Positions 3,138-46,201 of a DNA stretch of 64,000 nt are shown piece by piece. The notes beneath the pieces are model-generated. The model had not been told where the DNA came from. It did no database searches and saw nothing but the letters and a program-made list of their open reading frames with translations. The position numbers and the translations under genes were made by a program. This DNA comes from Sulfolobales archaeon HS-7 (lineage in GTDB: Archaea; Thermoproteota; Thermoprotei_A; Sulfolobales; Sulfolobaceae): assembly GCA_019704295.1 (NCBI GenBank), contig AP024596.1, forward strand, positions 2,048,001 to 2,112,000. Reading direction: 5' to 3'. How positions within the stretch are numbered: position 1 is the stretch's first letter; the number at the start of each line of letters is the position of its first letter.

Positions 3138-5546
3138 CTATAATTCGCACGTAGCGCAGCCACCGGCGAAGTTTTCATCCACTTCAACTTTAGCTATTCT
3201 AAGAGACTTAGCGGCTTTTTTCTCTTCTTCTATTTTTTCCTTTTCTTGCTTTAACCCGAAATATATGACTTGCTTAGATTTGGATCTGTCCCTATATACC
3301 GTAATTCCCTTTATTCCTAATTTCCACGCCTCAGTGTAAACTCTCCAAACGGTCTCTACACTTTCCTCTTCTCTTAGGTTGATCGTCTTGGAGACTCCAG
3401 AGTCGTTCCACTGTTGCCACGCCGCTTGATGAAGGAGATGATACTCGGGCGAAATTTCATGGGCCGTTCTAAATAGTTTCTTTACGCTCTTTGGCATTGG
3501 CATATCTTTTATCATCCCGGTCTCGGCTACTTTCTCTATGACCTCAGGATAGTCCATCTCATATTTTCTTAGATAATCTAAGAATAATGGGTCGATCTCA
3601 ATAAACTTACCAACCGCAACATTCCTTATAAATGCTAAGGCAAACAACGGCTCTATACCTGATGAGGTTCCTGCTATTATCGAGATAGTCCCTGTCGGTG
3701 CAATAGAGGTTACTGTTGAATTTCTGAGTCCATATAACACCCTCAATCTTTTTAGTTCAGCGAAATCTAACGAGTCGACTAACTTAACCACGTCTCTTAC
3801 TCTTTCCGAAATAGGTCCATTTATTCCTGTTGTTTCCAATAAGTATTCAAACGACCTAGCAGTATCAAAAATATCTCTATATAATGATGGATTGTAATCC
3901 GGGAATGCACCTTTCTCTTTTGCTAACTCTATTGACGTGAGAAAAGCGTAATAATAGATGAACTTCGATAGTTGGTATGAGAAGTATATAGCGTCTACTG
4001 AATCGTAGGGAATTCCAAGCTTTATTAACATCCTTGCAAGTCCCATAACTCCCAATCCAACTTTTCTAGTTCTTTTAGTTGCATTTTCAATTTGTTTAAG
4101 AGGGTATCTGTTTTTATCGATGACTCTATCCAGAAGTCTTATTCCATACTTTATAGTCGAAATGAGACCCTCCCAATCGATCTTCCCATCGTTTACGAAC
4201 TTCTCTAGATTTATTGACCCCAGGTTGCATGATTCCCACTGGAGAAGAGGTTCTTCTGCACACGGATTGGTGGCTTGGATTTTTCCTAAATACCACACTG
4301 GATGCCTTCTATTTATTTCATCGATAAATATTAGACCTGGATCTCCAGATTCCCACGCACCCTTAACTATTTGAGCGAATATTTCCCTAGGATTCACTAC
4401 CTTAGAGACTGCTTGTTCTTTCTCCGCGATGATAGTTGCCTCTTCTAAAGTCACTATAACGCTTTCATCAAGATAAACGGATCCCTTTTCCTCAAGTTCT
4501 TGTAATATGGCCTCCTGTACCCACTCCTCAGTTATTGAATTCCTTGCCTTGTTTATAAGATACCCAGTCTTTCGAGGATTAATTAGGCGCCAAGGAATAT
4601 CAGAGTTCATGCTCTCCATAAAGGCATCATGAATTGCAACAGAGATATTGAAATTCTGAAGATGTACATCCCTAGATTCCCCTGTTTTTGATTTAATAAA
4701 TTCCTCAACGTCGGGATGCCAGGACGCCAAAATTCCCATATTAGCGCCCCTCCTTTTTCCTCCCTGTTTAACGACATCAGTTGATACGTCAAAGATTTTC
4801 ATAAATGATACAGGTCCTGACGCTACACCTGCTGTTGACGCCACCACGTCGCCTTTGGGTCTAAGCTCAGAGAAATCAAACCCAGTTCCTCCCCCTTGCT
4901 GATGCACTATTGCCATGGCCCTTAATGTGTCATATATTCCGTCTCCTTCAGGAGTTATCATAGAGTCCTTAACGGGAAGGACGAAACACGCTGAGAGTAT
5001 ACCTAATCGTGTACCGCTATTCATTAAAGTCGGGGTGTTTGGTAAAAACTTTAAAGAGGACATTATCTCATAAAACTTCTCTTCTTCTTCTTTTGTCTCC
5101 GCCAAGAAATGAGCAACTCGGCGGAACATCGCTTGGGGAGTTTCTATATACCGTAAAGTAGCTGGATTCTTTAGTAGATATCTTGCTTCTAGGACTTTTA
5201 ATGCGTTATATGAGAGGAGAAGATCTTTCTCGTCAAACTTATCCCACTTTTTATTATATACATGATTATATATCCTCGCAAGGACATATCTCTTTGCAAT
5301 TACTTCATAAGAAGCATTATTTACAACGTGCTGTATAATATGTTTTTCAACTATATCCGCTATGGTCTTAGTTTCAATAGCGTTATCCTTTGCGGAGCTA
5401 GAGATATCCGATAAAATTTCCTCGATCAATTCAGATGGGACATGTTTGCGTAGTTTATCAATGCTGAAGTCCTCAATTCTTCCGTCTCTCTTTAGGACCT
5501 TCAGATGAACTTGGCTGTTAGTAACTAACGATGCATTGGATTGCAT
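3138..5546 (-). CDS. nrdJ: Adenosylcobalamin-dependent (class II) ribonucleotide reductase with N-terminal ATP-cone
   Basis: VLKRDGR ATP cone, [38 protein letters not shown]-terminal CxxC. Confidence 0.95.
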
Positions 5547-12283: not shown

Positions 12284-12333
12284 TTTTATCTTTCTTCTCG
12301 GAGGTAAAAAGCGTTACGTAAACTGGGGAGTTT

Positions 12334-18465: not shown

Positions 18466-18538
18466 TTATATAGTTTTTCTCAGTAAATCGGAAGGTATTT
18501 CAAAAATTACTCTACTGATATTAGGGCACTGCACATAG

Positions 18539-19849
18539 TCAGATAATTCGAGTCTGTAGTCTAATCTTATCGTTATCCTCATAATTAATTTCACTATTCT
18601 TTAGAACATCTAGAATTATTTCGATTAAGTCATTTATGTCTTTTTGTAGACTTTGCGACTTGCCATCAGGATCTAATACTCTCTTTATAGAGGGCTCTAA
18701 TGTGTAATATAACTTGTTTTTGAGTTCATCTCTACCTATTTCACCGTTATTCTGGCCTATTATTTCTCTCACTAGATCCACAAAGCCACCTTTTCTACTT
18801 CCTATTACACCTCTCGCTGAAGGTAATATGGGAAGCCCGTAATTTTGCCTTAAAATTCTCAATAACTCTCGAACTATTTCCACTTTATTAGTCCTTTTTA
18901 CTACAAGCTTTCCGTTTTTAACTTCTAAGATATCTGATAATCTGTTCCCTTCTCTGAGTGTATTAACCAGAATATCGGGAGTTTTACTATATCTCAACCA
19001 TACTATCGTGTCCAGATCGAAAATATGAACCCTTATGTAAGAATTTTCTGCCATCTGTTCAACTTCATTTTTATCTATTACTATCGGGTTACCGTTATCA
19101 TCTGTAAGTCTACTGAATACTCCATTACTCCATTCTCGTGAGCTTATTTTATTTTCTATTATATCTCTAGCTCTTTTTATTTGATTAGGCGCTAAATTCA
19201 GATCCTCCTCGAATTTTTGCTCAAGGCTACTTTTCAATTCGCTTTCTATTTTTTTAACATAGAACTTTTTCACTTCTTCTCCGCATTTCTCATAAAGTAT
19301 GAGAAAGTCTCCTATCTCTGGGATTATAATTGCCTTCTCCAGTCGTGTTATATCTTCTATTCTATCAAAGTTACCCGTTATTTTTGCTATGGACGATTTC
19401 GCTAGTATACGTGTAGATTTCAAGTTGACTCCTATAAACAAGTGACATGAACATTCTATATCGTTAATACTGCATCCCCACTGCGTATATAAAAGTAAAG
19501 TTAACTTGTGTTTTAATTCTCTCTTTAGATCAGATATATTTTTATTATATATAATATCGTCTGTATAAATATTATCGTCTATGCGTTTAACGTTTAGCTC
19601 ACCGGCTGGATACTCCTCGGAATTTTCGTCATCATGTTGTTGATTAATGTCACAAAAGCAGTTGATATTTGTTCTAAATAATTGGAGCAACACCGTGTTT
19701 ACATCTTTAGCAGGAAGTCCTACTCTATATACTGTATACCTATAACTGTTCTTTTTGTTGCCCTTTTGTACTATATATACATTCGCCGAATCTCCACGAA
19801 AATTATTTAATACTTGACATAGATAGTTACTACTAAGCTCTTCATCCAT
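18539..19849 (-). CDS. KwaB (DUF4868)-like protein with C-terminal extension
   Basis: Layout resembles KwaB (IIIPEIGDFLI; KFEEDL; VRELLRILRQNY); paired with a KwaA-like gene; GGGGTG RBS. Confidence 0.5.
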   Translation of the reverse strand: MDEELSSNYLCQVLNNFRGDSANVYIVQKGNKKNSYRYTVYRVGLPAKDVNTVLLQLFRTNINCFCDINQQHDDENSEEYPAGELNVKRIDDNIYTDDIIYNKNISDLKRELKHKLTLLLYTQWGCSINDIECSCHLFIGVNLKSTRILAKSSIAKITGNFDRIEDITRLEKAIIIPEIGDFLILYEKCGEEVKKFYVKKIESELKSSLEQKFEEDLNLAPNQIKRARDIIENKISSREWSNGVFSRLTDDNGNPIVIDKNEVEQMAENSYIRVHIFDLDTIVWLRYSKTPDILVNTLREGNRLSDILEVKNGKLVVKRTNKVEIVRELLRILRQNYGLPILPSARGVIGSRKGGFVDLVREIIGQNNGEIGRDELKNKLYYTLEPSIKRVLDPDGKSQSLQKDINDLIEIILDVLKNSEINYEDNDKIRLQTRII

Positions 19850-19902
19850 AATTTTTCACACCCCTTCAATACTTTTTTATTTTAAGAAAATCTAATATTT
19901 AT

Positions 19903-20502
19903 ATGTTAGATAAGTTAGGAAAATTATTGCTTATACTGAATGAGTATGGAATCGCCTTGTTCTATCTGACGTACGTTACATTTAATCATTTGTTGTCCTT
20001 CTATTTGTCATTAATAGTAGCAATTCTGGTATTTCTCGGTCTTTTTATATTCGTCGTAATTTTCGTGTCCAGTATTCTCCCTGCAAGGACTGCTAGCCGA
20101 CTGATATCGGGAAAGATAATAGAAGCTAGAAGGATTCACTATCAGATCATCTCATTTCAAACTAGTAACGTAATCCCTTTTGTATTAGCCTCCTACGATA
20201 ACGTTATAACCTTAATCATTAGCTGGATCATGTTATTTCTCTTTATAGTACTATCATACAACGATGTTTCGATATTAGCATTGAACCCGTATCTTTTGTT
20301 AAGGGAGTATAGCCTTTACCTCATAAAGGTAGAGATACCCCACTCAAATTACAAAGATTATTACGTATTTTCAAGAGATGATCTTGAAACTAGATCGGGT
20401 CTCGAACTGAATACTGCCCATCTTTATGAGATTGATAACAATTTGTATATTGTGATAAATGTAGAAGGTGAAGAAAACAAAAACACTAGTATGAATCCCT
20501 AA
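19903..20502 (+). CDS. KwaA-like 4-TM protein (Kiwa defence)
   Basis: ISFQTSNVIPF...ALNPYLLLREYSLYLIKV...EIDNNLYIV matches the KwaA pattern; 199 aa. Confidence 0.65.
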   Translation: MLDKLGKLLLILNEYGIALFYLTYVTFNHLLSFYLSLIVAILVFLGLFIFVVIFVSSILPARTASRLISGKIIEARRIHYQIISFQTSNVIPFVLASYDNVITLIISWIMLFLFIVLSYNDVSILALNPYLLLREYSLYLIKVEIPHSNYKDYYVFSRDDLETRSGLELNTAHLYEIDNNLYIVINVEGEENKNTSMNP

Positions 20503-20692
20503 AAGGGATTATAGTATTACTTGAGACTACAATTTTGCTCAGTAAACTGGGGAGTTAACACAATTTTTTCTCACGCATATTTTCTTCATTAGATCCCACA
20601 TATGCGCTTTTACTGTTTAGTTAACAGTTTTTCAAAATTCAATGAGAATAATCAGCATACCCTTTTTAATGCTGCTTAATAAACATATGCTT

Positions 20693-20845
20693 ATGAGAAT
20701 TGAAGATAAGGACGAGAAAGGCGAGGGTTACTTAGTTATTGAAAGTAAGGAAGATTTTAAGAAGTTTAAGGAGGACCTACTCAGACTGGCAAGGGAAAAA
20801 GCTAAGGCCCGTAAGCCATCTTATGAGACCCAACCTCCCAAATAA
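20693..20845 (+). CDS. 50-aa putative antitoxin (copy 2)
   Basis: MRIEDKDEKGEGYLVIESKEDFKKFKEDL...KPSYETQPPK. Confidence 0.7.
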   Translation: MRIEDKDEKGEGYLVIESKEDFKKFKEDLLRLAREKAKARKPSYETQPPK

Positions 20846-21107
20846 ACACGATACAGTTTTTTGGATCAGCACTATAAAGTATCCTTATATCACCCGTAAC
20901 CTCTATGGAAAACATGGGATTTCCATACTTATCCTTTCCCAGTTTCTCTCTGGAGTATTTGAAAGGGTTTTCCTGTAATAGTTCTAGTTTCTCTGAAATA
21001 AGCATTATCAGCTTATCATTATACGTATCCGTAGCATACTCTAAAAACTCTCTGTAACTCTTTACCTTCCTCATCATGAACTTCAATTCCCAATCCTTAC
21101 AAACCAC
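20802..21107 (-). CDS. RelE/ParE-superfamily toxin
   Basis: LELLQENPF..REKL..FSIEVTGDIRILYS..IVFIWEVGSH. Confidence 0.75.
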   Translation of the reverse strand: MVCKDWELKFMMRKVKSYREFLEYATDTYNDKLIMLISEKLELLQENPFKYSREKLGKDKYGNPMFSIEVTGDIRILYSADPKNCIVFIWEVGSHKMAYGP

Positions 21108-22392: not shown

Positions 22393-24294
22393 GTGATGAG
22401 TTCAAAAGTAGCTAAGAAAAAGAGGGAACTAAGCCCAGCTGTCTGGTATGAAGTGATAGGAACTCCTTTCTTTCTTGAAGAAGAGAAGCAGAGAGACCAG
22501 CTTCTTAACGACTTCGCTACCGAAATTAAATCGCATAAATACACGGTAGCGTGGGCAATCGGCAAAAAAACACAGATAGAGATAGAGGAGGGATACTTAA
22601 GAAACTCAACCGAAAGTAAATTCTATTTAGGATTTCTAGAGCAAGATGAAAAGCCGATATTATTCAAATATATTAATAGGCATAATACACTCCCAGAGCC
22701 ACGTAAAGAAATAGATTATGTTACAGATACATATATAAAATTTAAGGACGGAACTTATGGACAAGTAGTATGGCTTGCTGGATTTGAAAAACTAGTACTC
22801 GAGGGAATCCTCAGCGTCATCTATCCGCTCGATATTTCGCCATCACAGACAGAAGTGTTTTTAGAAGTAACTACGGATGATGGGAGCGGAAAATTCGAGC
22901 AACGCTTCAGGAGCTATTTAGGTAGTATACTCAGCAGATCAGCTAGGTACATAGCGCATACGAATATCAGCAGTAACTTGCTAGAGCTTAAGAACAACGC
23001 GGATGACTTACAGTCTAGGATAAACGAAGGGAAACAACCAATAGCGATAAGGGGATTTGTTACTGTTATTGATAATGACATTAGCAGTTTAGAAGCTGCA
23101 ACTGAAAAAGTGCAGTTTCAGTTGAATCGATTCGGTGTGAAAACTAAACTACTGAAGAAAATACATTTCATCTTCTATCAGCTAAAGCACGATAGGTTTC
23201 ATGCTTACTGGAAGTATACTACTAACAACTATGCGGCATTACTGTATCCTTTCGGCGTCTTCAGGATTGAAGAACAAGATAGTATCTTTTTGGGATATGA
23301 CAGGATTTCTGGAAACCCGATCTATATCAACCCATGGCTTACTGGAATTTGGAAAACTAACCCTCACGGTCTTATCACTGGTTTATCAGGCAGCGGAAAG
23401 ACTACCACCGCTGGAGTTTTGATTTATCGCGCAGTTAAGAAATATGATCCTTATATATATGTAATCGACCCGATGAATAACTTTTCTAAGTTTTTCCAAA
23501 AATTTGAAATTCCAGCAAAGATAATCACTCTTGAAAAAGAGAAGCCTATGGGACTGGATCCTGTCAAAATCGCAATGAACTCTGGAGGTGTGTTATCAAT
23601 TAACGATTTTGTAGGGATTTTACTAAGCAGTTATAATATTCCACCTCAAGGTAGAGGATTTGTTAAGAAGGAATTAGAAAGTAGTGAAAACACGGAAGAA
23701 GCCGTAGATAGAATCTGTCAGAAAGACGCTGAGATATGTAAGTATGCACAGGATATGGTTACCGGATATGACAGAAATATTTGGGCAGGGGAAGGAATAG
23801 ATTTCGTTTCAAAGAGAATAGTGATCAACCTCGGTGATATGCCAGATTATATGAGGAAAATAGTAATGACACTTCTAACGGCTTCTACTAGAGCAACGCT
23901 TAACAGAATTGATAGAAAAAGTTACAAACCCGTTTTGATGGATGAGGCACACAGGATCTTTGATGATGAATCTTCAGCTTACTTTGTAGAGAAACTGTAC
24001 AGGGAAGGTAGAGCTTTACACGCCTCGACGTGGACCATTACACAGTCAATCCGTGACTATTACTATAATCAAAGAACTGAGACGATACTAACACAAGCAG
24101 AAACCCAAATCTTGATGAACCATGACGGGAGTGAGAAAGATGCCCTGCAGAAGGCTGGCTTAAATGATGAAGAGATAGAATTTCTGACGAACAATCCAGG
24201 GCGGGGCCAGGGAATATTACGGTTAGGAAGTATCAAGACTTTCGTAAATGTGACATTGACGGAAAAAGAACTCGAGGTGTTGAGAACTGAGTAG
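22393..24294 (+). CDS. VirB4/TrbE-like conjugative ATPase
   Basis: NPHGLITGLSGSGKTT Walker A, IDP, MDEAH Walker B, REGR, TQS, GQGIL. Confidence 0.9.
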   Translation: MMSSKVAKKKRELSPAVWYEVIGTPFFLEEEKQRDQLLNDFATEIKSHKYTVAWAIGKKTQIEIEEGYLRNSTESKFYLGFLEQDEKPILFKYINRHNTLPEPRKEIDYVTDTYIKFKDGTYGQVVWLAGFEKLVLEGILSVIYPLDISPSQTEVFLEVTTDDGSGKFEQRFRSYLGSILSRSARYIAHTNISSNLLELKNNADDLQSRINEGKQPIAIRGFVTVIDNDISSLEAATEKVQFQLNRFGVKTKLLKKIHFIFYQLKHDRFHAYWKYTTNNYAALLYPFGVFRIEEQDSIFLGYDRISGNPIYINPWLTGIWKTNPHGLITGLSGSGKTTTAGVLIYRAVKKYDPYIYVIDPMNNFSKFFQKFEIPAKIITLEKEKPMGLDPVKIAMNSGGVLSINDFVGILLSSYNIPPQGRGFVKKELESSENTEEAVDRICQKDAEICKYAQDMVTGYDRNIWAGEGIDFVSKRIVINLGDMPDYMRKIVMTLLTASTRATLNRIDRKSYKPVLMDEAHRIFDDESSAYFVEKLYREGRALHASTWTITQSIRDYYYNQRTETILTQAETQILMNHDGSEKDALQKAGLNDEEIEFLTNNPGRGQGILRLGSIKTFVNVTLTEKELEVLRTE

Positions 24295-26189: not shown

Positions 26190-26756
26190 CTTAAGAAACA
26201 GTCTGAATAAAGATACACCTTTTTTATAATATTCTTCATTTATTCTTACTTTTTCTGGCGGATGACTCCAAAATATCCAGTGTAATAGTAGTCCAAGTTT
26301 ATTCTTCTCTAGTTTAATCGGAGTATACTTTCGTCCTGTGATTTCATAAGCGAAAATATCAGCTCTTCTCTCTTCATTTTTCTTACGCCACTTTACTATG
26401 ATGAACATAACAAAAGCCGTCAGCCAGTTCCATGGTAAGCTTAGCAAAAATAGGGGAAAGATTACTACTGATGTCAGTAAAGGATCAAGTAAGAAATTAT
26501 CATGGATTAAATGTCCCAGTTCATGATAATATGCCGCCTTATCTTCTTCAATTCCTCTATAGAGAATTTTCTTTCCATTTAACATCTTATAGGAAAAATA
26601 ACCGCGTGCGGGACACTCATAAAACTCGATATTAAAGAGGGATCGCTTAACGCAGATAGACTGTTTAGCGTCTCTATATGCCCTAATCTCACTTTGTAGC
26701 ATTAGAAATAGAAATGCTCCCGTATAAGTTATTACTACAAGTATGGTTTCCATCAT
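26172..26756 (-). CDS. M48-like membrane Zn metalloprotease
   Basis: HELGH, EERRADIFA, SHPP..R. Confidence 0.8.
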   Translation of the reverse strand: MMETILVVITYTGAFLFLMLQSEIRAYRDAKQSICVKRSLFNIEFYECPARGYFSYKMLNGKKILYRGIEEDKAAYYHELGHLIHDNFLLDPLLTSVVIFPLFLLSLPWNWLTAFVMFIIVKWRKKNEERRADIFAYEITGRKYTPIKLEKNKLGLLLHWIFWSHPPEKVRINEEYYKKGVSLFRLFLKSLFSN

Positions 26757-26785
26757 TTTTAACAGTTTTAAAAAATAGAGGAAGA

Positions 26786-28699
26786 ATGAGCTATCCTAAC
26801 CACCATACTATACAGAGAATGAGTGTGTTAATCGTAGGAATAATATTAGTGCTAGGAATAGTAGCAATGCTTGCAAATTATAAGCCCTCTCAGACTGGAC
26901 CTATCGCTATCCAAAATCCTTCACCGACGATAACAACACCTCCCCTGAACGTCACTCCTCCTAAACTGAACATAACTAATTTCACTGCGACTTACAGTTT
27001 TACTAATGCAGTAGAATCGCTTAATGCTACAGACATCTATACTTTCAATTCTACTAAGTTGCTTGAGTTTGAATACGCATATAACCCGCTTGCGTCGACT
27101 GTAGCTGATATACTTTCACTTTCAGCTAGCCAGGTAACGCCGTGGACTTATTCTGAATTATATAACATTTTAGACTCTAAATACACTCATTGGACTTCTA
27201 CTAGAACAGTGTCAATGTACTATTATCCGATGAACATGAGCATGAACACGATATATCTGAATTTTGCATTTCAAACTAATCCTCAGTTTGTTAATGCTTA
27301 TGAACAATTAAATAGAAATTATCCGTTTCCACCTTCAGACAATATCACGGTAAACTCCCCAGTTTACCGCATAATTAACAAAACTTCTGTAACAACTAGC
27401 GTAAATGTTCAATTTAGCAATTATACATATTTAATATATAATTATACTTACAAGAGCGGCAATACGGTATATGAATATTTATATTATGACTCGTCCGTAG
27501 AGGGATACGCTTATCTTTATGCTAATAATCAACTGATAAATTCTCAATATTTCTATTATAACTTCTACTGGTGGGGTGGGAGTTACACTAACACGCTCTA
27601 CGGTGAAGTAACAGTTCCACCTGGCATGATGAAACAAGTTTACGCAGATTACACTATCTTAATGTCACCTGGTTATGGTTTTCAAGAAAAACAGCAGGGG
27701 AATGTAACTTACTACATTTACAAGTATTATCCAGCAGGGCCATACGTATCAATGTTAGGTTATATGTTTAATTGGTACGAATATAATGTATTGTTACAGA
27801 TAAAAATTCTAGTTTATAATGGTAGTAATCCAGTAACTTACGTTAATAACCAGACCTATAACTCTAGAACTATTAACGTAATAGTTTCATATAATGTATG
27901 GAGTTCAGACCCTAAAACTTATACAAATACTATAAAAACACTAGACCATATAATGTTTTTAAAGTATAATTTAACTAGAATATGGCACGCAGGGAGTATA
28001 ACAATTAACCCGACCTGTTATATACAACAAATCGGAAATGCCGTTAATTATTATCTTAATTTTAACATACAAAATGATATTATCGAACCGCCTTCATACA
28101 TTTTCCATCCAGTTCATCAACTGAACGAAACGACAGTGCTGCAGTGGAGCTACTTCCTCAATAACTATATTGTTGTCAAGGGGCTGTATAACGCAGTGCA
28201 CGAAAACATAGACGAATTCAATTATATCCTTCCACAGTTTGTAACATCTGTCTATAAAGAGAATCTAACATTGCGTACGATAACTATAGCTAGCTTTATT
28301 GAGCCATGGAATGTTTCCCAGGTGACCCTAAACGTATCTGGCGTCTTAGCAAAAAGTAATATGATCTTTATTCCAGTCAATATAACACCTAATACTTCAT
28401 ATAGTATAATCTATTCCGCGCTGGGATCTATTTATACAATACCCAACGTGACTTTACTAAGCTATGAATGGAATAATATGACGGGATCTGGGTACTTTCC
28501 ACCTTTAGTCGAGAACGAACTGTACAACGGAACTATTCCACCTCCAATCTATGCTCCATTCATGAAAAATATAGTGTTGAACTACGGATACTATTGGCCA
28601 TATCGACTACCTTATGTAGAATTTTCGATTCAACAATTACAGAAAAATTACGAATATTGGTACAACCCCGCATGGCCTGGCTGGTTCCCAATAAGCTAA
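26786..28699 (+). CDS. Membrane-anchored Tyr/Asn/Thr-rich surface protein of the transfer region
   Basis: N-terminal TM, many N-x-S/T sequons; start placed at MSYPN. Confidence 0.75.
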   Translation: MSYPNHHTIQRMSVLIVGIILVLGIVAMLANYKPSQTGPIAIQNPSPTITTPPLNVTPPKLNITNFTATYSFTNAVESLNATDIYTFNSTKLLEFEYAYNPLASTVADILSLSASQVTPWTYSELYNILDSKYTHWTSTRTVSMYYYPMNMSMNTIYLNFAFQTNPQFVNAYEQLNRNYPFPPSDNITVNSPVYRIINKTSVTTSVNVQFSNYTYLIYNYTYKSGNTVYEYLYYDSSVEGYAYLYANNQLINSQYFYYNFYWWGGSYTNTLYGEVTVPPGMMKQVYADYTILMSPGYGFQEKQQGNVTYYIYKYYPAGPYVSMLGYMFNWYEYNVLLQIKILVYNGSNPVTYVNNQTYNSRTINVIVSYNVWSSDPKTYTNTIKTLDHIMFLKYNLTRIWHAGSITINPTCYIQQIGNAVNYYLNFNIQNDIIEPPSYIFHPVHQLNETTVLQWSYFLNNYIVVKGLYNAVHENIDEFNYILPQFVTSVYKENLTLRTITIASFIEPWNVSQVTLNVSGVLAKSNMIFIPVNITPNTSYSIIYSALGSIYTIPNVTLLSYEWNNMTGSGYFPPLVENELYNGTIPPPIYAPFMKNIVLNYGYYWPYRLPYVEFSIQQLQKNYEYWYNPAWPGWFPIS

Positions 28700-32445: not shown

Positions 32446-35400
32446 ATGTATGAACTACTTCTAAGAACGGATATTGACTATAAGAAGCTTAAAATAACTG
32501 ACATTTTTACTCATTCTTTCAAAATATATTATTATAACGACGGCGAATACACTCATATCTATCTGGACTCTAACGCGGATCAAAGAATTCTGCAGCAGTA
32601 CTTTGCAGTAAAGCCCTCCGATTTTAATCCATACAATTTTAAGTACTGGACGGAAATTATACCTGATATAGAGAACGATTTCTATTATAAGTTACATTAT
32701 AACAGTTTAGATAATTTCATAAGCAGCTCTCTGCAAAAGGAACAAATATTATGCATTCTGGCGAGCATTGATAATAAAATAAATAGGGAATTTCTTAGGA
32801 GGTCTCATAAACTTAAAGACAGACAAACTAGGGATGCACAAGTACAAAGACAACAACTAGAAAGCTTTGCTAAGGACACACTATACTCTATTAGATTAGT
32901 CCTACTAAGTAATGAACTTGGTAGTCTGTTAGACACTGCATATAAATTAGCCTCTTACGTAGTAACTAATTCTAACAATATTGGAGTAAAGACATTATTC
33001 GGCAAGCCATTAAGGACAGTATATCCTAACTCATGGAAGGCCTTCTTAAGTCTTGAAGATTATGAATATGACAACGACTTTGCACAAATAAGAAGATTAG
33101 ATTATAAGAAGAGGTTATGGGCTACACAAGACGACTTACAATACTTAGTTACGTTCCCGACCACAGTAAAGATTCCCTTAGGGCTATCAGTAACTCTTCC
33201 TTACTATAAGTTAGAAAGAAAGCCCGAAATATGCATAGGTAAAGACTTGGTTTACGGTGAGGAGGTCTGCTTAGAGCCCATAGACTTCATAGGCCATGCT
33301 TTCTTTTTCGGGGCATCAAGGTCTGGGAAAAGCAATACCTTAGAGGTAATAGCTAAACAGCTGAAAAACTACGGAGTAGTAATATTTATTGACCCTAATT
33401 CACAATCTGCACGTAAATTATCGCAGATTGCGGACATGTACTTTTCAATTACTAAAGAGAAACCAAACTTCGGGCTCAACATATTACAATTACCTCACAT
33501 TTTTGAAGACCGTAAGAAGAACATAGACTACCAAATAGCGAATGTCTTGGAACTCTTCGATAAGCTGCTACAATTACCGGAGAACGCTCCAAACGTCAGA
33601 TACATACTCCAGGTACTCCTTTATCAGATGTACAAACTTACGGATAACGTAACATTCCAAGATGTATATAACGCGGTTATTGACCTCTATAACGGGAATT
33701 TAGACCTTGACGTTAATGATGAGCAGTTTCAAAAGGAAGTGGAAATGTTGCAAAAGATGCAGCCGCAATCCTTCTTCTCTATACTGACTAGGATAAAGAT
33801 GTTAGTAGAGAATGACACTTTCAAATACATAACTTCCGAAACAACACTGGACTGGGAAAAGTTAATCCCTAAGTTAAAGAAAGGGCTGATAGCATTTGAT
33901 GTAGGGAAATCGTCTGGGGAAATAGTCAGTCAGACCGTTCAAATGATGATCGCGTTATCTCTCTTTTACTACGTATTCAGAAGGGATCAGAGAGGGGAAG
34001 ATAAAATACCCATATACTTCGTCGTTGACGAAGCCCAGAACATTGCGCACTTCAGTTTTCTAGGGGATATTCTGGCTGAAGCTGCAAAGTACGCTTTGCA
34101 CTTGATCCTGGCAACACAGAGTTACGTCAGGTTAATGGACATGGCAGGGGAAGGAAATGCAAGAGGCCTGATGGCCAATACTAACGTTAAGCTAGTAATG
34201 AGGATAGTAGAAGGTAACGACGCTAATGAGATCGCAAAATCTGCAGGGTTAAAGGAATTCGTAGACGTGTTCCCGAAGTTGAGTAGGGGTATGGGTTTCC
34301 TAACAATTGGCGGAAAGCCGGGTGAACTGAGTGCAATAAAGTTTATTCAAGTAAATTACAGCGGACTGGAGGATAAGGAAGGAAAGCTTACGGAAGGGTT
34401 TGAGCCCAAGATAATTGGGTCTCAGGACATCGCAAAGATGCTTAATCCAATTCTACAATTAATAGAGAAAAAACCGGAACCATTAGAGTTGGTCATTCTT
34501 TATAGGACATTCAGGAACGGAAAGAAGATCTACATGCCTGATTTATTGAGGGAGCTAGGAGTGGATAGAGATAGGGTGGAGGACGCAATTAACAAACTTG
34601 CAGCCGCTGGGATGATAGATGTAACTAAGGAAGGTAACAAAAAGGCCATAATTTACGTTAAGGGTTTATTCCCATTAAAGCACGTAGTTGAGAATGAAGA
34701 GGGCAAGAAGGTAGCACTCAGGGTAATTAAGAAATATTACGATAAAGGGTATATCGTAATTCCGGGCAGACAGCAGGGAGATATTAGAGCCGATTTTCTC
34801 GCCCTCAAATACGATAGTAGCTATAAACTAAAATACGATGACGTGATAGCAGCGGAAATAGAGAGTCCCAACGAGCTATCTGTACATGCGGAACAGGTAG
34901 TAAGGAACATGAAGAAGTATAATGAGTTACCTAACGCTGCAAAGGACAGGATTGCCGAGATCCACATATGGACGTCTGAGGAGGCTTATCCTAAATTAGA
35001 GAAAGCCTACAAGAAGTTCTTAGAAGATAATACAATAGATGAGAGTTACAAAAACAAAGTGAAGATATTCTCTATAAAGATAAAAGAGAAGGCTGAACCG
35101 AAAGTACAGCAGCCACAGCAGAAAATAAGGAAGCCTAACACGTCAACTGGGGAGTTTACCCAAGCTAAACAGGTCGAGAGACAGGAAGTCCGAAGCGAAA
35201 GTAAAGTTGTAACTAACGCTCCTAGCGCTGCTACTGGTAATAACAATAATGAAGAAGGGGAAGTGTCAGAGGGACCAGAGCAAGAATGGGAGATACTAGA
35301 GCCTAAGTCAGCGTTAACTCCTCAGTTAATAACGCTAGCACAGTTAGAGCTTCAGGTAATAGATATGTCCAACGGTAAGGCGATTATTAAGGTCAGCGAT

Positions 35401-35544
35401 AAGGAATATAGGATAAATATTAAGGACTTAGAGGACCTGCAGGGCCTGAGAGACATGATAACTGAAGCAAAAATAGACAACAACTGCCTTAAGGTAAAAA
35501 CAAGCCTAGGCCTCACTCAAAAGATCGTTTTGGAGCCCTTATGA
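32446..35544 (+). CDS. VirD4/TraG-like coupling ATPase with C-terminal wHTH and nuclease-like domain
   Basis: FGASRSGKSN Walker A, IDP, VVDEAQN, LATQS; 1032 aa. Confidence 0.9.
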   Translation: MYELLLRTDIDYKKLKITDIFTHSFKIYYYNDGEYTHIYLDSNADQRILQQYFAVKPSDFNPYNFKYWTEIIPDIENDFYYKLHYNSLDNFISSSLQKEQILCILASIDNKINREFLRRSHKLKDRQTRDAQVQRQQLESFAKDTLYSIRLVLLSNELGSLLDTAYKLASYVVTNSNNIGVKTLFGKPLRTVYPNSWKAFLSLEDYEYDNDFAQIRRLDYKKRLWATQDDLQYLVTFPTTVKIPLGLSVTLPYYKLERKPEICIGKDLVYGEEVCLEPIDFIGHAFFFGASRSGKSNTLEVIAKQLKNYGVVIFIDPNSQSARKLSQIADMYFSITKEKPNFGLNILQLPHIFEDRKKNIDYQIANVLELFDKLLQLPENAPNVRYILQVLLYQMYKLTDNVTFQDVYNAVIDLYNGNLDLDVNDEQFQKEVEMLQKMQPQSFFSILTRIKMLVENDTFKYITSETTLDWEKLIPKLKKGLIAFDVGKSSGEIVSQTVQMMIALSLFYYVFRRDQRGEDKIPIYFVVDEAQNIAHFSFLGDILAEAAKYALHLILATQSYVRLMDMAGEGNARGLMANTNVKLVMRIVEGNDANEIAKSAGLKEFVDVFPKLSRGMGFLTIGGKPGELSAIKFIQVNYSGLEDKEGKLTEGFEPKIIGSQDIAKMLNPILQLIEKKPEPLELVILYRTFRNGKKIYMPDLLRELGVDRDRVEDAINKLAAAGMIDVTKEGNKKAIIYVKGLFPLKHVVENEEGKKVALRVIKKYYDKGYIVIPGRQQGDIRADFLALKYDSSYKLKYDDVIAAEIESPNELSVHAEQVVRNMKKYNELPNAAKDRIAEIHIWTSEEAYPKLEKAYKKFLEDNTIDESYKNKVKIFSIKIKEKAEPKVQQPQQKIRKPNTSTGEFTQAKQVERQEVRSESKVVTNAPSAATGNNNNEEGEVSEGPEQEWEILEPKSALTPQLITLAQLELQVIDMSNGKAIIKVSDKEYRINIKDLEDLQGLRDMITEAKIDNNCLKVKTSLGLTQKIVLEPL

Positions 35545-44472: not shown

Positions 44473-44753
44473 TGGAATTGCAGCAAGTAGTAATTCCTAA
44501 GATTACTGTTTCAAAGATGAGGAAGAAAAGCGGGGAGCTTTACTATACGTATTTACCCCAGAGCTTCACAGCGTATCTAGAGGGTAAAAAGTGGAACGTA
44601 ATAGCCACAGTAAACGATAAAGAGGTCCCTTTGGGACCTAGATCTCCGTTCCGCCACGGCCGTAATTTGATTATAACTCTCCCATTAGCCTACAAGGACT
44701 TATGGGAATCACTTTTAGGTAAGGAAATAGACTTAATCTTTTTGAAGATCTAA
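44469..44753 (+). CDS. AbrB-like swapped-hairpin protein
   Basis: YYTYLP..IITLP duplicated AbrB pattern. Confidence 0.65.
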   Translation: MMELQQVVIPKITVSKMRKKSGELYYTYLPQSFTAYLEGKKWNVIATVNDKEVPLGPRSPFRHGRNLIITLPLAYKDLWESLLGKEIDLIFLKI

Positions 44754-46000
44754 AGCAGCCTAGGTGAATATTTGTCGTAAATCTGTTGTAATTCTATATC
44801 CGATATTACGAAGTAATGGTCCTGCAAGATTTTGAACTGCTGCGGGGGAGCTCTACCCTGGAGGATATTGACCAGCATCGGGCTCACTCCCTGCTTCAGC
44901 ATATACGATGCCCAAAAACTCCTTATATCATAAAGTCTGAACTCTTTGCCTAGCACTTTCTTCATTGCTTGTTTAATCGAATATCTTATATCTTGGAGTT
45001 GGAAGGGGAACAGCTTACTCTTCCACTTCTCTACATCTTGCCCTATCCCCCTAACCGCAGGCTCATATCTTTTTATAAATTCTTCTCTATAGGGTAAATA
45101 GACGTCTTTCAGATATTCTACAGTTTTCGAATGAATAAAGCAAATATATGCTCTTTTCGTCTCATTCTCTTTAAGCAGCTTGATTACTCTGTGCTCTAAG
45201 TCCGTTTGTTCCATAGTTATATTGTAAACCTCCCCTGTCCTCAACCCCGTTTCACATAATAATAAGAAATAGGCCTTAGCTCCCCGGTGTTCTGTCGCGT
45301 CAAATATTTTCTTCAAAGTTTCTATGTTGAGGTTTTCCGGTCTGTGCTTGTACTTTCCCTTAGGTACTGTAAACGAGGAGTAAAGTAAATGTGCTAATCC
45401 AGGGTTTTTCTCCCTGAAAACCGTCTTTATAAACAGTTTTAACGAGTTCGCCATATGTCTTGCGACATTAGGGCTATCTGCTTCTATTAATATCTCCCTA
45501 ATTCCGTCAGGCGACAGTTCATAGCTCAGTTCAGATAGGGCTCTCTTCAGATATCTCATACGCATATCCCTAGTACTTTTGGACTTATTGTTTAGTAATG
45601 TCTCGAATTTCTTCACATCTTCCTCGCTTACGATATACGTGCTTGTAGTTGTCCTTAAGTAGTCCCCCATATACTGGTACAGTAACGTTATGAAGAAGTT
45701 TCTAAAGCCCTCATCTCTTAGCGCCTTCACTATAACACTTAATGCGACCGTCGGGTCTACATCTATCGTTTTCAGTCCGTATAGTGAGTCGCTTAGCTCT
45801 TCAACACTGAGCATCTCTGCAGCGTTAGTTATTATTTCGTCCTGGATCCTCCTTACTTTACCCGCAACATACCTGTATAAAGTACTTCTATCAATTCCCA
45901 ACTTTTGTGCAACGTAACTTAACCCGTATTTTTCTACAGTTTTCTTTAATATTCGTATTTTTTGCTCACTGTCAAGTTTATTTACGTCAATCTTTACCAT
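44750..46000 (-). CDS. int: pNOB8-type tyrosine integrase (intact)
   Basis: N-terminal HTH; ETGLR, YDIR, LQGR, DHY catalytic residues; start placed at MVKID. Confidence 0.92.
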   Translation of the reverse strand: MVKIDVNKLDSEQKIRILKKTVEKYGLSYVAQKLGIDRSTLYRYVAGKVRRIQDEIITNAAEMLSVEELSDSLYGLKTIDVDPTVALSVIVKALRDEGFRNFFITLLYQYMGDYLRTTTSTYIVSEEDVKKFETLLNNKSKSTRDMRMRYLKRALSELSYELSPDGIREILIEADSPNVARHMANSLKLFIKTVFREKNPGLAHLLYSSFTVPKGKYKHRPENLNIETLKKIFDATEHRGAKAYFLLLCETGLRTGEVYNITMEQTDLEHRVIKLLKENETKRAYICFIHSKTVEYLKDVYLPYREEFIKRYEPAVRGIGQDVEKWKSKLFPFQLQDIRYSIKQAMKKVLGKEFRLYDIRSFWASYMLKQGVSPMLVNILQGRAPPQQFKILQDHYFVISDIELQQIYDKYSPRLL

Positions 46001-46104
46001 AGTCTCATATTCTATTATTAGACTTACACACTGTTGCAAAAATATCCTTCGCTGTTGCAAATGCCTTATCTTTGTAGAGAATGTATCTCCCTTAAAATTA
46101 ACGT

Positions 46105-46155
46105 AAAATTAGTGCCGCGGCCGGGATTTGAACCCGGGCCACAGGCTTGAGAGGC
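46105..46155 (-). repeat. att repeat, right boundary (within tRNA-Glu)
   Basis: Identical to 16620-16670. Confidence 0.95.
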
Positions 46156-46201
46156 CTGCATACTTTCGGTGCAAGACTTGACCGGGCTATACTACCGCGG
46201 C
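46113..46201 (-). tRNA. tRNA-Glu(CTC) with 14-nt non-canonical D-arm intron
   Basis: GCCGCGG acceptor stem, CT-CTC-AA loop, TTCAAAT T-loop; extra CTTGCACCGAAAGT in the D-arm. Confidence 0.92.

Follow-up and report, generated by a model that had tools for sequence, protein, structure and literature searches.

The divergent gene pair described here lies in a 64,000-nucleotide stretch of the genome of Sulfolobales archaeon HS-7 (GenBank AP024596.1, positions 2,048,001 to 2,112,000; hereafter the window). One gene encodes a 199-amino-acid (aa) membrane protein that profile comparisons place in the KwaA family as a distant member, KwaA being the membrane component of the Kiwa defence system. The other encodes a protein of 436 aa that ends in a predicted winged helix and is, at the level of sequence, not detectably KwaB, the usual partner of KwaA. 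Distribution and divergence indicate that the two genes are co-inherited as one module. Our favoured but tentative reading, by analogy with Kiwa, is a KwaA-family module in which a winged-helix protein substitutes for KwaB; its role would probably be defence or exclusion.

The KwaA-family protein and its linkage to the partner gene

The open reading frame (ORF) of the 199-aa protein occupies positions 19903 to 20502 on the + strand. Six PADLOC KwaA models match it over profile positions 22-183 of 196, with E values from 9.4e-8 to 1.8e-4. The NCBIfam KwaA model NF041622 also matches (E 1.3e-6) but with 28.4 bits against an equivalog cut-off of 100, so that the protein is a remote KwaA relative rather than an equivalog. 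Its top match in a sequence search of solved structures is KwaA (9mrg and 9o0i, E 0.0066), and its orthologue in Acidianus carries a precomputed faint match to PF28043 (KwaA). When the 199-aa family was compared by hhalign with KwaAs paired with a PF16162 KwaB (a reference alignment of the E. coli protein and three Thermoproteota KwaAs), the result was a probability of 92.8% (E 4e-7); comparison with all KwaAs gave 96.5-97.6%, against 0.3-0.6% for cross-controls. Homology to KwaA is thus supported by four independent libraries and by a profile-profile comparison with controls.

Hydropathy delineates four hydrophobic segments (residues about 6-26, 31-58, 87-103 and 104-122) which are collinear with the KwaA alignment, as expected of a protein with four transmembrane helices. 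They are followed by a polar, strand-like C-terminus, which is probably cytoplasmic and beta-rich. In KwaA, the C-terminus and the intracellular loop build a cytoplasmic beta-barrel of six strands, and the alignment of the C-terminal strand motifs hints at the same here. The patterns VIPF, NP...Y.LY and IDNNLY all fall in hhalign columns aligned to KwaA. The last of these belongs to a conserved C-terminal strand motif, [IV]D[DN]N[LV]Y, that aligns next to the E. coli beta-barrel residues docking KwaB. The original prediction had recognised KwaA in this gene from its four membrane segments and from these residue patterns; both grounds stand, and the PADLOC, NCBIfam, structure-bank and hhalign results agree on the identification. 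The protein also matches phrog_7312, a PHROG family of unknown function (E 1.8e-7), which indicates that KwaA-like proteins occur in viruses of bacteria or archaea as well. No further relatives of the 199-aa subfamily were found in the metagenome contigs, viral contigs and plasmids searched.

The pair is known from three places, namely HS-7, Acidianus sp. HS-5 and a metagenome contig, and is divergent and head-to-head in all three. Every known homologue of either gene adjoins a homologue of the other. The original prediction had suggested looking for the same divergent pair in Sulfolobales genomes; it was found in Acidianus HS-5 and in the metagenome contig, always together. The partner is 76% and 67% identical to its two counterparts and the KwaA-like protein, similarly, 77% and 68%, and the pairwise non-synonymous divergence (dN) is nearly equal (0.215, 0.120 and 0.222 for the partner gene; 0.218, 0.126 and 0.212 for the KwaA-like gene). 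Both ORFs are under purifying selection, with ratios to synonymous divergence (dN/dS) of 0.19-0.32 for the partner and 0.06-0.19 for the KwaA-like gene. Of 201 genomes sampled from the order, only HS-7 and HS-5 contain the KwaA-like subfamily. The cassette gene is the sole KwaA match in the HS-5 genome, where neither PF16162 nor any member of a second, 357-aa KwaB-like family (see below) was detected. The HS-5 KwaA-like protein therefore cannot rely on a KwaB encoded elsewhere, and the adjoining 438-aa protein is its only candidate partner. Neither cassette gene was found in PLSDB plasmids or phage records.

KwaA models match at E up to 0.001 in 7 of 401 sampled Thermoproteota genomes, one of them (G397) with an interrupted reading frame. 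Canonical Kiwa, that is, an operon of KwaA and a PF16162 KwaB, occurs at three of these loci (L016, L017 and L021). The HS-7 genome itself carries a second operon outside the window, 562 kb upstream (G000:C1:1484654-1486319; L020, L024). It is co-directional and consists of a gene for a 195-aa KwaA (PDLC00215, E 4e-9), a gap of 7 nt and a gene for a 357-aa protein, which has no Pfam or PADLOC match but is KwaB-like by hhalign (85-95%). Two or three other Sulfolobaceae genomes also contain relatives of this operon (L025, L026 and, as a fragment, L027). In E. coli and in six Thermoproteota loci kwaA and kwaB are co-directional with kwaA first, and the co-directional neighbours of the archaeal KwaAs found here are all KwaB-like. 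The divergent 436-aa protein is the exception, which agrees with the contrast between divergent pair and usual operon drawn in the original prediction.

The ORF in the KwaA position of L026 (1598-2746) is 382 aa long instead of about 195 aa; KwaA may be extended or fused there, or the start may be wrongly assigned. At L018 (1480-3105) a KwaA-like gene is followed by that of a 274-aa protein which matches the C-terminal two thirds of KwaB (hhalign 63-88%) and may be an N-terminally reduced KwaB. Finally, PDLC00215 matches the control genome of Lactococcus lactis, whereas all 14 controls lack a match to PF16162, which points to a possible bacterial KwaA-like gene that has no KwaB.

The 436-aa partner protein

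The partner is encoded at 18539 to 19849 on the - strand and has no family match. It is soluble, without any hydrophobic segment (the maximum 19-residue Kyte-Doolittle mean is 1.13). No KwaB or DUF4868 (PF16162) match was obtained with Pfam, PADLOC or NCBIfam at E up to 1, nothing meaningful emerged from the PHROGs and the structure bank, and PF16162 is absent from the whole HS-7 genome at E up to 0.001. The hidden Markov model (HMM) of the 357-aa family fails to find KwaB in the structure bank, so that profile-to-sequence search is too weak a test. The working control for KwaB is hhalign, and only with archaeal KwaBs in the profile. Profiles were built from E. coli KwaB, 56 collected KwaBs and the three archaeal PF16162 KwaBs that adjoin archaeal KwaAs.

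Against the three KwaB profiles the partner family reaches 0.2-0.8%, with scores of 14.6-18.2 in local and 1.6-11.2 in global mode. Reversed-sequence nulls in local mode score 15.4-17.0, that is, at the same level. Comparison with the Sulfolobaceae 357-aa KwaB-like family gives 0.8-1.0%. The partner profile is shallow (3 close sequences, Neff 1.3), but so are those of the two positive controls. One is the Sulfolobaceae family itself (3 sequences of 351-357 aa, missed by Pfam and PADLOC), which reaches 85-95% with E values from 6e-6 to 8e-9. The other is the single 274-aa protein from another Thermoproteota genome, at 63-88%. The proposal in the original prediction that the partner is a divergent KwaB was not upheld by this comparison, in which the partner stays at the null level while the controls attain 63-95%. 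A motif alignment of the partner to KwaB made by eye was tempting, but was dropped as unsupported by any profile score.

Structure prediction gave little more for most of the protein. The full-length AlphaFold2 model, made from the 3-sequence alignment, has a mean predicted local distance difference test (pLDDT) value of 34, and the ESM Atlas model one of 0.37. A structural search from the latter, poor model returned no match for the whole partner or for residues 1-345. A complex prediction of the KwaA-like protein with the partner gave an ipSAE of 0.00, with the fold of the partner itself uncertain, and therefore speaks neither for binding nor against it.

The C-terminal ~85 residues alone fold in prediction, as a winged helix. 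This domain (residues about 349-436; 18542 to 18805, - strand) displays the order H1-S1-H2-H3-S2-S3, so that the winged helix-turn-helix-like tail described in the original prediction is retained as a fold class. The partner may bind DNA through this tail. Conservation within the family is highest in the C-terminal half, and a highly conserved loop, ARGVIGSRKGG (residues 345-355), stands just before the winged helix. C64, C66, C133 and H136 are invariant in the family and, judged by eye, could form a metal site. E111, D181 and E192-x-K194 are likewise invariant in the 3 sequences. The signature of PD-(D/E)xK nucleases is E ... D ... ExK in an alpha-beta-beta-beta-alpha-beta core; the likeness of the partner residues to it is by eye and without profile or fold support. 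Pfam searches with four sub-fragments at E up to 10 gave inconsistent weak matches (DUF4007, E 0.009 with the HS-5 protein only; Imm3; DUF903), which were rejected. A phmmer search of the structure bank returned nothing for residues 255-436 and, for residues 100-255, MJ0223 as best match (E 0.056).

Homologues of the partner are few. A word-indexed search of 5.8 billion clusters found 2, and exhaustive HMMER and phmmer searches over 1.84 billion representatives found one true relative (P0002); a repetitive SLH/Big_3 surface protein also returned by phmmer was judged spurious. No relatives beyond the known ones were detected in genomes, metagenomes and viral contigs, none by tblastn in plasmids and phages, and no paralogue within the HS-7 genome. 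Among weak matches in the 401 Thermoproteota genomes, the three inspected lie in Obg/YchF-like GTPase and glycogen-phosphorylase-like genes and were rejected as chance.

The cargo module and its carrier element

The pair is contained in a segment bracketed by two direct copies of a motif, which we take to be the recombination site published by Stedman et al. 2000 and Greve et al. 2004. The full copy, TTTTGCTCAGTAAACTGGGGAG, is an exact match and forms the right boundary (20533 to 20554, + strand). The left boundary is a degenerate copy, TTTTTCTCAGTAAATCGGAAG (18474 to 18494, + strand), and blastn homology to HS-5 starts exactly at 18474. At up to 3 mismatches the 22-nt motif has 3 copies in the window compared with 0 in 100 shuffles. 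Its core, TAAACTGGGGAG, has 9 exact copies (at 12319+, 17685-, 20543+, 24559-, 27355-, 28721+, 40305+, 40362+ and 40983-), all between 12319 and 40994; one-mismatch copies lie at 35143 and 39033, and none was found in the window outside this span. The left copy exceeds 3 mismatches, but is real by homology: its HS-5 counterpart is TAAACTGGAGAG, one mismatch from the core. The original prediction was thus right about the two bracketing copies and their direct orientation, with the start of the left one now set at 18474 instead of about 18475.

In HS-5 the module is also bracketed by two direct motif copies, one with TTAACTGGGGAG and the other with TAAACTGGAGAG; the copy at the position of the right boundary has 3 mismatches. 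The blastn alignment between the window and the HS-5 locus is confined to 18474-20483 (75% identity), the flanks being unaligned. In the metagenome locus (L003) homology stops at 20526, with the break within the first bases of the right motif. The left boundary copy decays stepwise from HS-5 to the window and then to the metagenome contig. The backbones of the window and HS-5 elements share genes at the protein level only, with about 40% identity at most, and the module lies on opposite sides of the VirB4-like gene in the two elements. Since the breakpoints in three loci fall on the motif, the latter marks crossover points, or ends, of exchangeable cargo. The motif-bounded cassette of the original prediction thereby gains a comparative basis, homology to both other loci ending at motif copies. 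From these alignments we conclude that the module spans 18474-20554 (about 2.08 kb) and forms a discrete unit of cargo, which recombination at TAAACTGGGGAG shuffles between plasmids.

Within the module the two start codons are separated by 53 bp (19850-19902), as the original prediction had stated for the divergent pair; the ORF coordinates and strands agree with it. An A/T-rich element in this intergenic region, CTTTTTTATTTTAAGAA (19872-19888), resembles a TATA box and precedes the ATG of the kwaA-like gene by about 23 nt. The core of the element, TTTTTATTTTA, is invariant in all three loci and its surroundings are nearly so. It is a probable promoter, and its position is consistent with a leaderless kwaA-like transcript.

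The carrier is an integrated element in a genome that forms a single contig of 2.15 Mb; the host belongs to the same family as Acidianus sp. HS-5. The window includes genes for a VirB4/TrbE-like ATPase (22393-24294), a TraG-like coupling ATPase (32446-35544) and a tyrosine integrase (44750-46060) adjoining a tRNA (46112-46201). Housekeeping genes flank the element, with ribonucleotide reductase (3138-5546) on one side and CoaBC and CTP synthase (50-53 kb) on the other. The VirB4-like protein can be aligned from end to end with its equivalents in Sulfolobales conjugative plasmids such as pNOB8, pTC1 and pAH1, at 24-30% identity. Because of these two conjugation-type ATPases, the integrase at a tRNA, the housekeeping flanks and the VirB4 alignment, the pair is considered to be carried by an integrated, distant crenarchaeal conjugative plasmid, in keeping with the archaeal conjugative element originally proposed. 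The VirB4/TrbE-like and TraG/VirD4-like proteins, the integrase at a tRNA and the repeated TAAACTGGGGAG are the features of an integrated plasmid of the pNOB8 type. Such plasmids (pNOB8, pING, pKEF9, pARN, pTC1 and pAH1) resemble the HS-7 element in these respects, including the multiple motif copies that divide the element. They differ from it in that the HS-7 backbone proteins are only 24-30% identical, and the cassette genes are present in no PLSDB plasmid. Two backbone proteins without Pfam family, of 661 aa in the window (26714-28699) and 651 aa in HS-5 (L001:7438-9393), are ~40% identical; in HS-5 the gene of the latter lies directly downstream of the cassette partner.

Proposed function and alternatives

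The closest described system is Kiwa (E. coli O55:H7 RM12579; PDB 9mrg, 9mrr, 9mrx and 9o0i; PF16162, NF041622). The cassette membrane protein shows homology to KwaA along almost all of its length and shares its four hydrophobic segments, its VIPF, NP and [IV]D[DN]N[LV]Y motifs and, probably, its beta-rich cytoplasmic C-terminus, and the cassette is likewise a two-gene unit on a mobile element. However, its partner has 436 aa and a winged-helix tail whereas KwaB has about 315 aa, and by sequence it is not KwaB; the genes are divergent instead of forming a kwaA-kwaB operon; and the cassette resides on a conjugative plasmid in a thermoacidophilic archaeon. The second HS-7 operon resembles the cassette in having a KwaA-family membrane protein, in the same genome, with a partner that is also missed by the Pfam and PADLOC KwaB models. 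It differs in being co-directional with genes 7 nt apart, and its 357-aa KwaB-like protein has no similarity to the 436-aa partner. Since a KwaB/DUF4868 partner (by sequence) and the operon layout were both sought and are both lacking, while KwaA homology is present, the cassette should not be filed as Kiwa; on these comparisons it is a KwaA-family variant. Kiwa is reported to counter phages as well as conjugation, with half of its loci on mobile elements; it senses membrane disturbance and binds incoming DNA (10.1101/2023.02.26.530102).

By analogy, the KwaA-like protein of the cassette would sit in the membrane and report when virus entry or incoming conjugation disturbs the envelope. The orphan 436-aa partner would replace KwaB as the DNA-directed component, and the module would protect host and plasmid from viruses or rival plasmids. 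Joint action of the two proteins, membrane sensing, DNA binding by the partner and a phenotype of defence or exclusion are thus all predicted from this likeness. Several observations weigh against such a machine. The linkage of the genes is a conserved adjacency seen in three occurrences, all within one mobile module, and co-inheritance alone could explain it. A divergent layout usually signals a regulator with its target, not subunits encoded in one operon. With 28 bits against an equivalog cut-off of 100, the match to KwaA is a distant one, and residues 1-345 of the partner contain no recognisable domain or catalytic motif.

Alternatively, the 436-aa protein could be a winged-helix transcription factor or another plasmid housekeeping protein that simply regulates the divergent membrane gene or lies beside it. 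The KwaA-like protein would then act alone (for example in surface or entry exclusion) or with host factors, and there would be no two-component machine of the Kiwa type. A divergent pair sharing a short promoter region is the classic layout of such a regulator, the winged helix is the sole recognisable part of the partner, and a second helix-hairpin-helix unit at about 280-340 is suggested by a low-confidence model only. Yet 436 aa is large for a plain regulator, purifying selection has conserved the roughly 345 residues that precede the winged helix, and all other KwaAs found here have a cytoplasmic partner. We regard this explanation as rather unlikely, though one to be taken seriously. An addiction or abortive module appears improbable. 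The membrane protein would then be a toxin, acting for instance by membrane depolarisation, checked by the cytoplasmic protein or its winged helix, and the pair would serve to stabilise the plasmid instead of sensing invaders. The cassette is plasmid cargo adjoining a RelE-like gene (20802-21107), it pairs a small membrane protein with a putative DNA-binding partner, and it behaves as a mobile cassette. KwaA, on the other hand, has not been described as a toxin, the partner is far larger than typical antitoxins, and no toxin-antitoxin family was matched in Pfam, PADLOC or NCBIfam.

It is also conceivable, though we give it very little credence, that the partner is a KwaB (a Rossmann-like domain followed by DUF4868) which has diverged beyond recognition and gained a winged-helix tail, the cassette then being a rearranged true Kiwa. 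The partner does adjoin a KwaA homologue, and 436 aa could hold a KwaB of about 315 aa together with a tail of about 90 aa. A missed detection is possible because the 357-aa KwaB-like family escapes Pfam and PADLOC, as archaeal KwaB-like proteins can, and the partner profile includes only 3 close sequences (Neff 1.3). However, the hhalign scores of 14.6-21.3, obtained with the KwaB profiles and the 357-aa family, are close to the reversed nulls of 15.4-17.0, equally shallow positive controls reach 63-95%, and neither PF16162 nor the PADLOC KwaB models match at E up to 1.

The favoured reading, a KwaA-family module with a substitute partner, can be extended to a wider proposal, which we advance with some doubt: KwaA may be a modular sensor in the membrane to which effectors other than KwaB can be coupled. 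The cassette would be the first example, and the 436-aa winged-helix protein a new class of effector used by thermoacidophile conjugative plasmids to exclude viruses or rival plasmids. In bacteria, Kiwa is one of the most common defence systems, and its definition has hitherto rested on a fixed pair, KwaA and KwaB. If this proposal is true, the strict linkage of a KwaA-family protein to an unrelated partner would imply that sensor and effector are exchangeable, as in other modular defence systems, and the signal given by KwaA could be studied through a second effector. To our knowledge, archaeal defence outside CRISPR and restriction-modification is poorly mapped, and we know of very few defence-type cargo genes on Sulfolobales conjugative plasmids. 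Detection tools that require both KwaA and KwaB will miss this locus, in which the plasmid recombination motif marks the ends of an exchangeable cargo.

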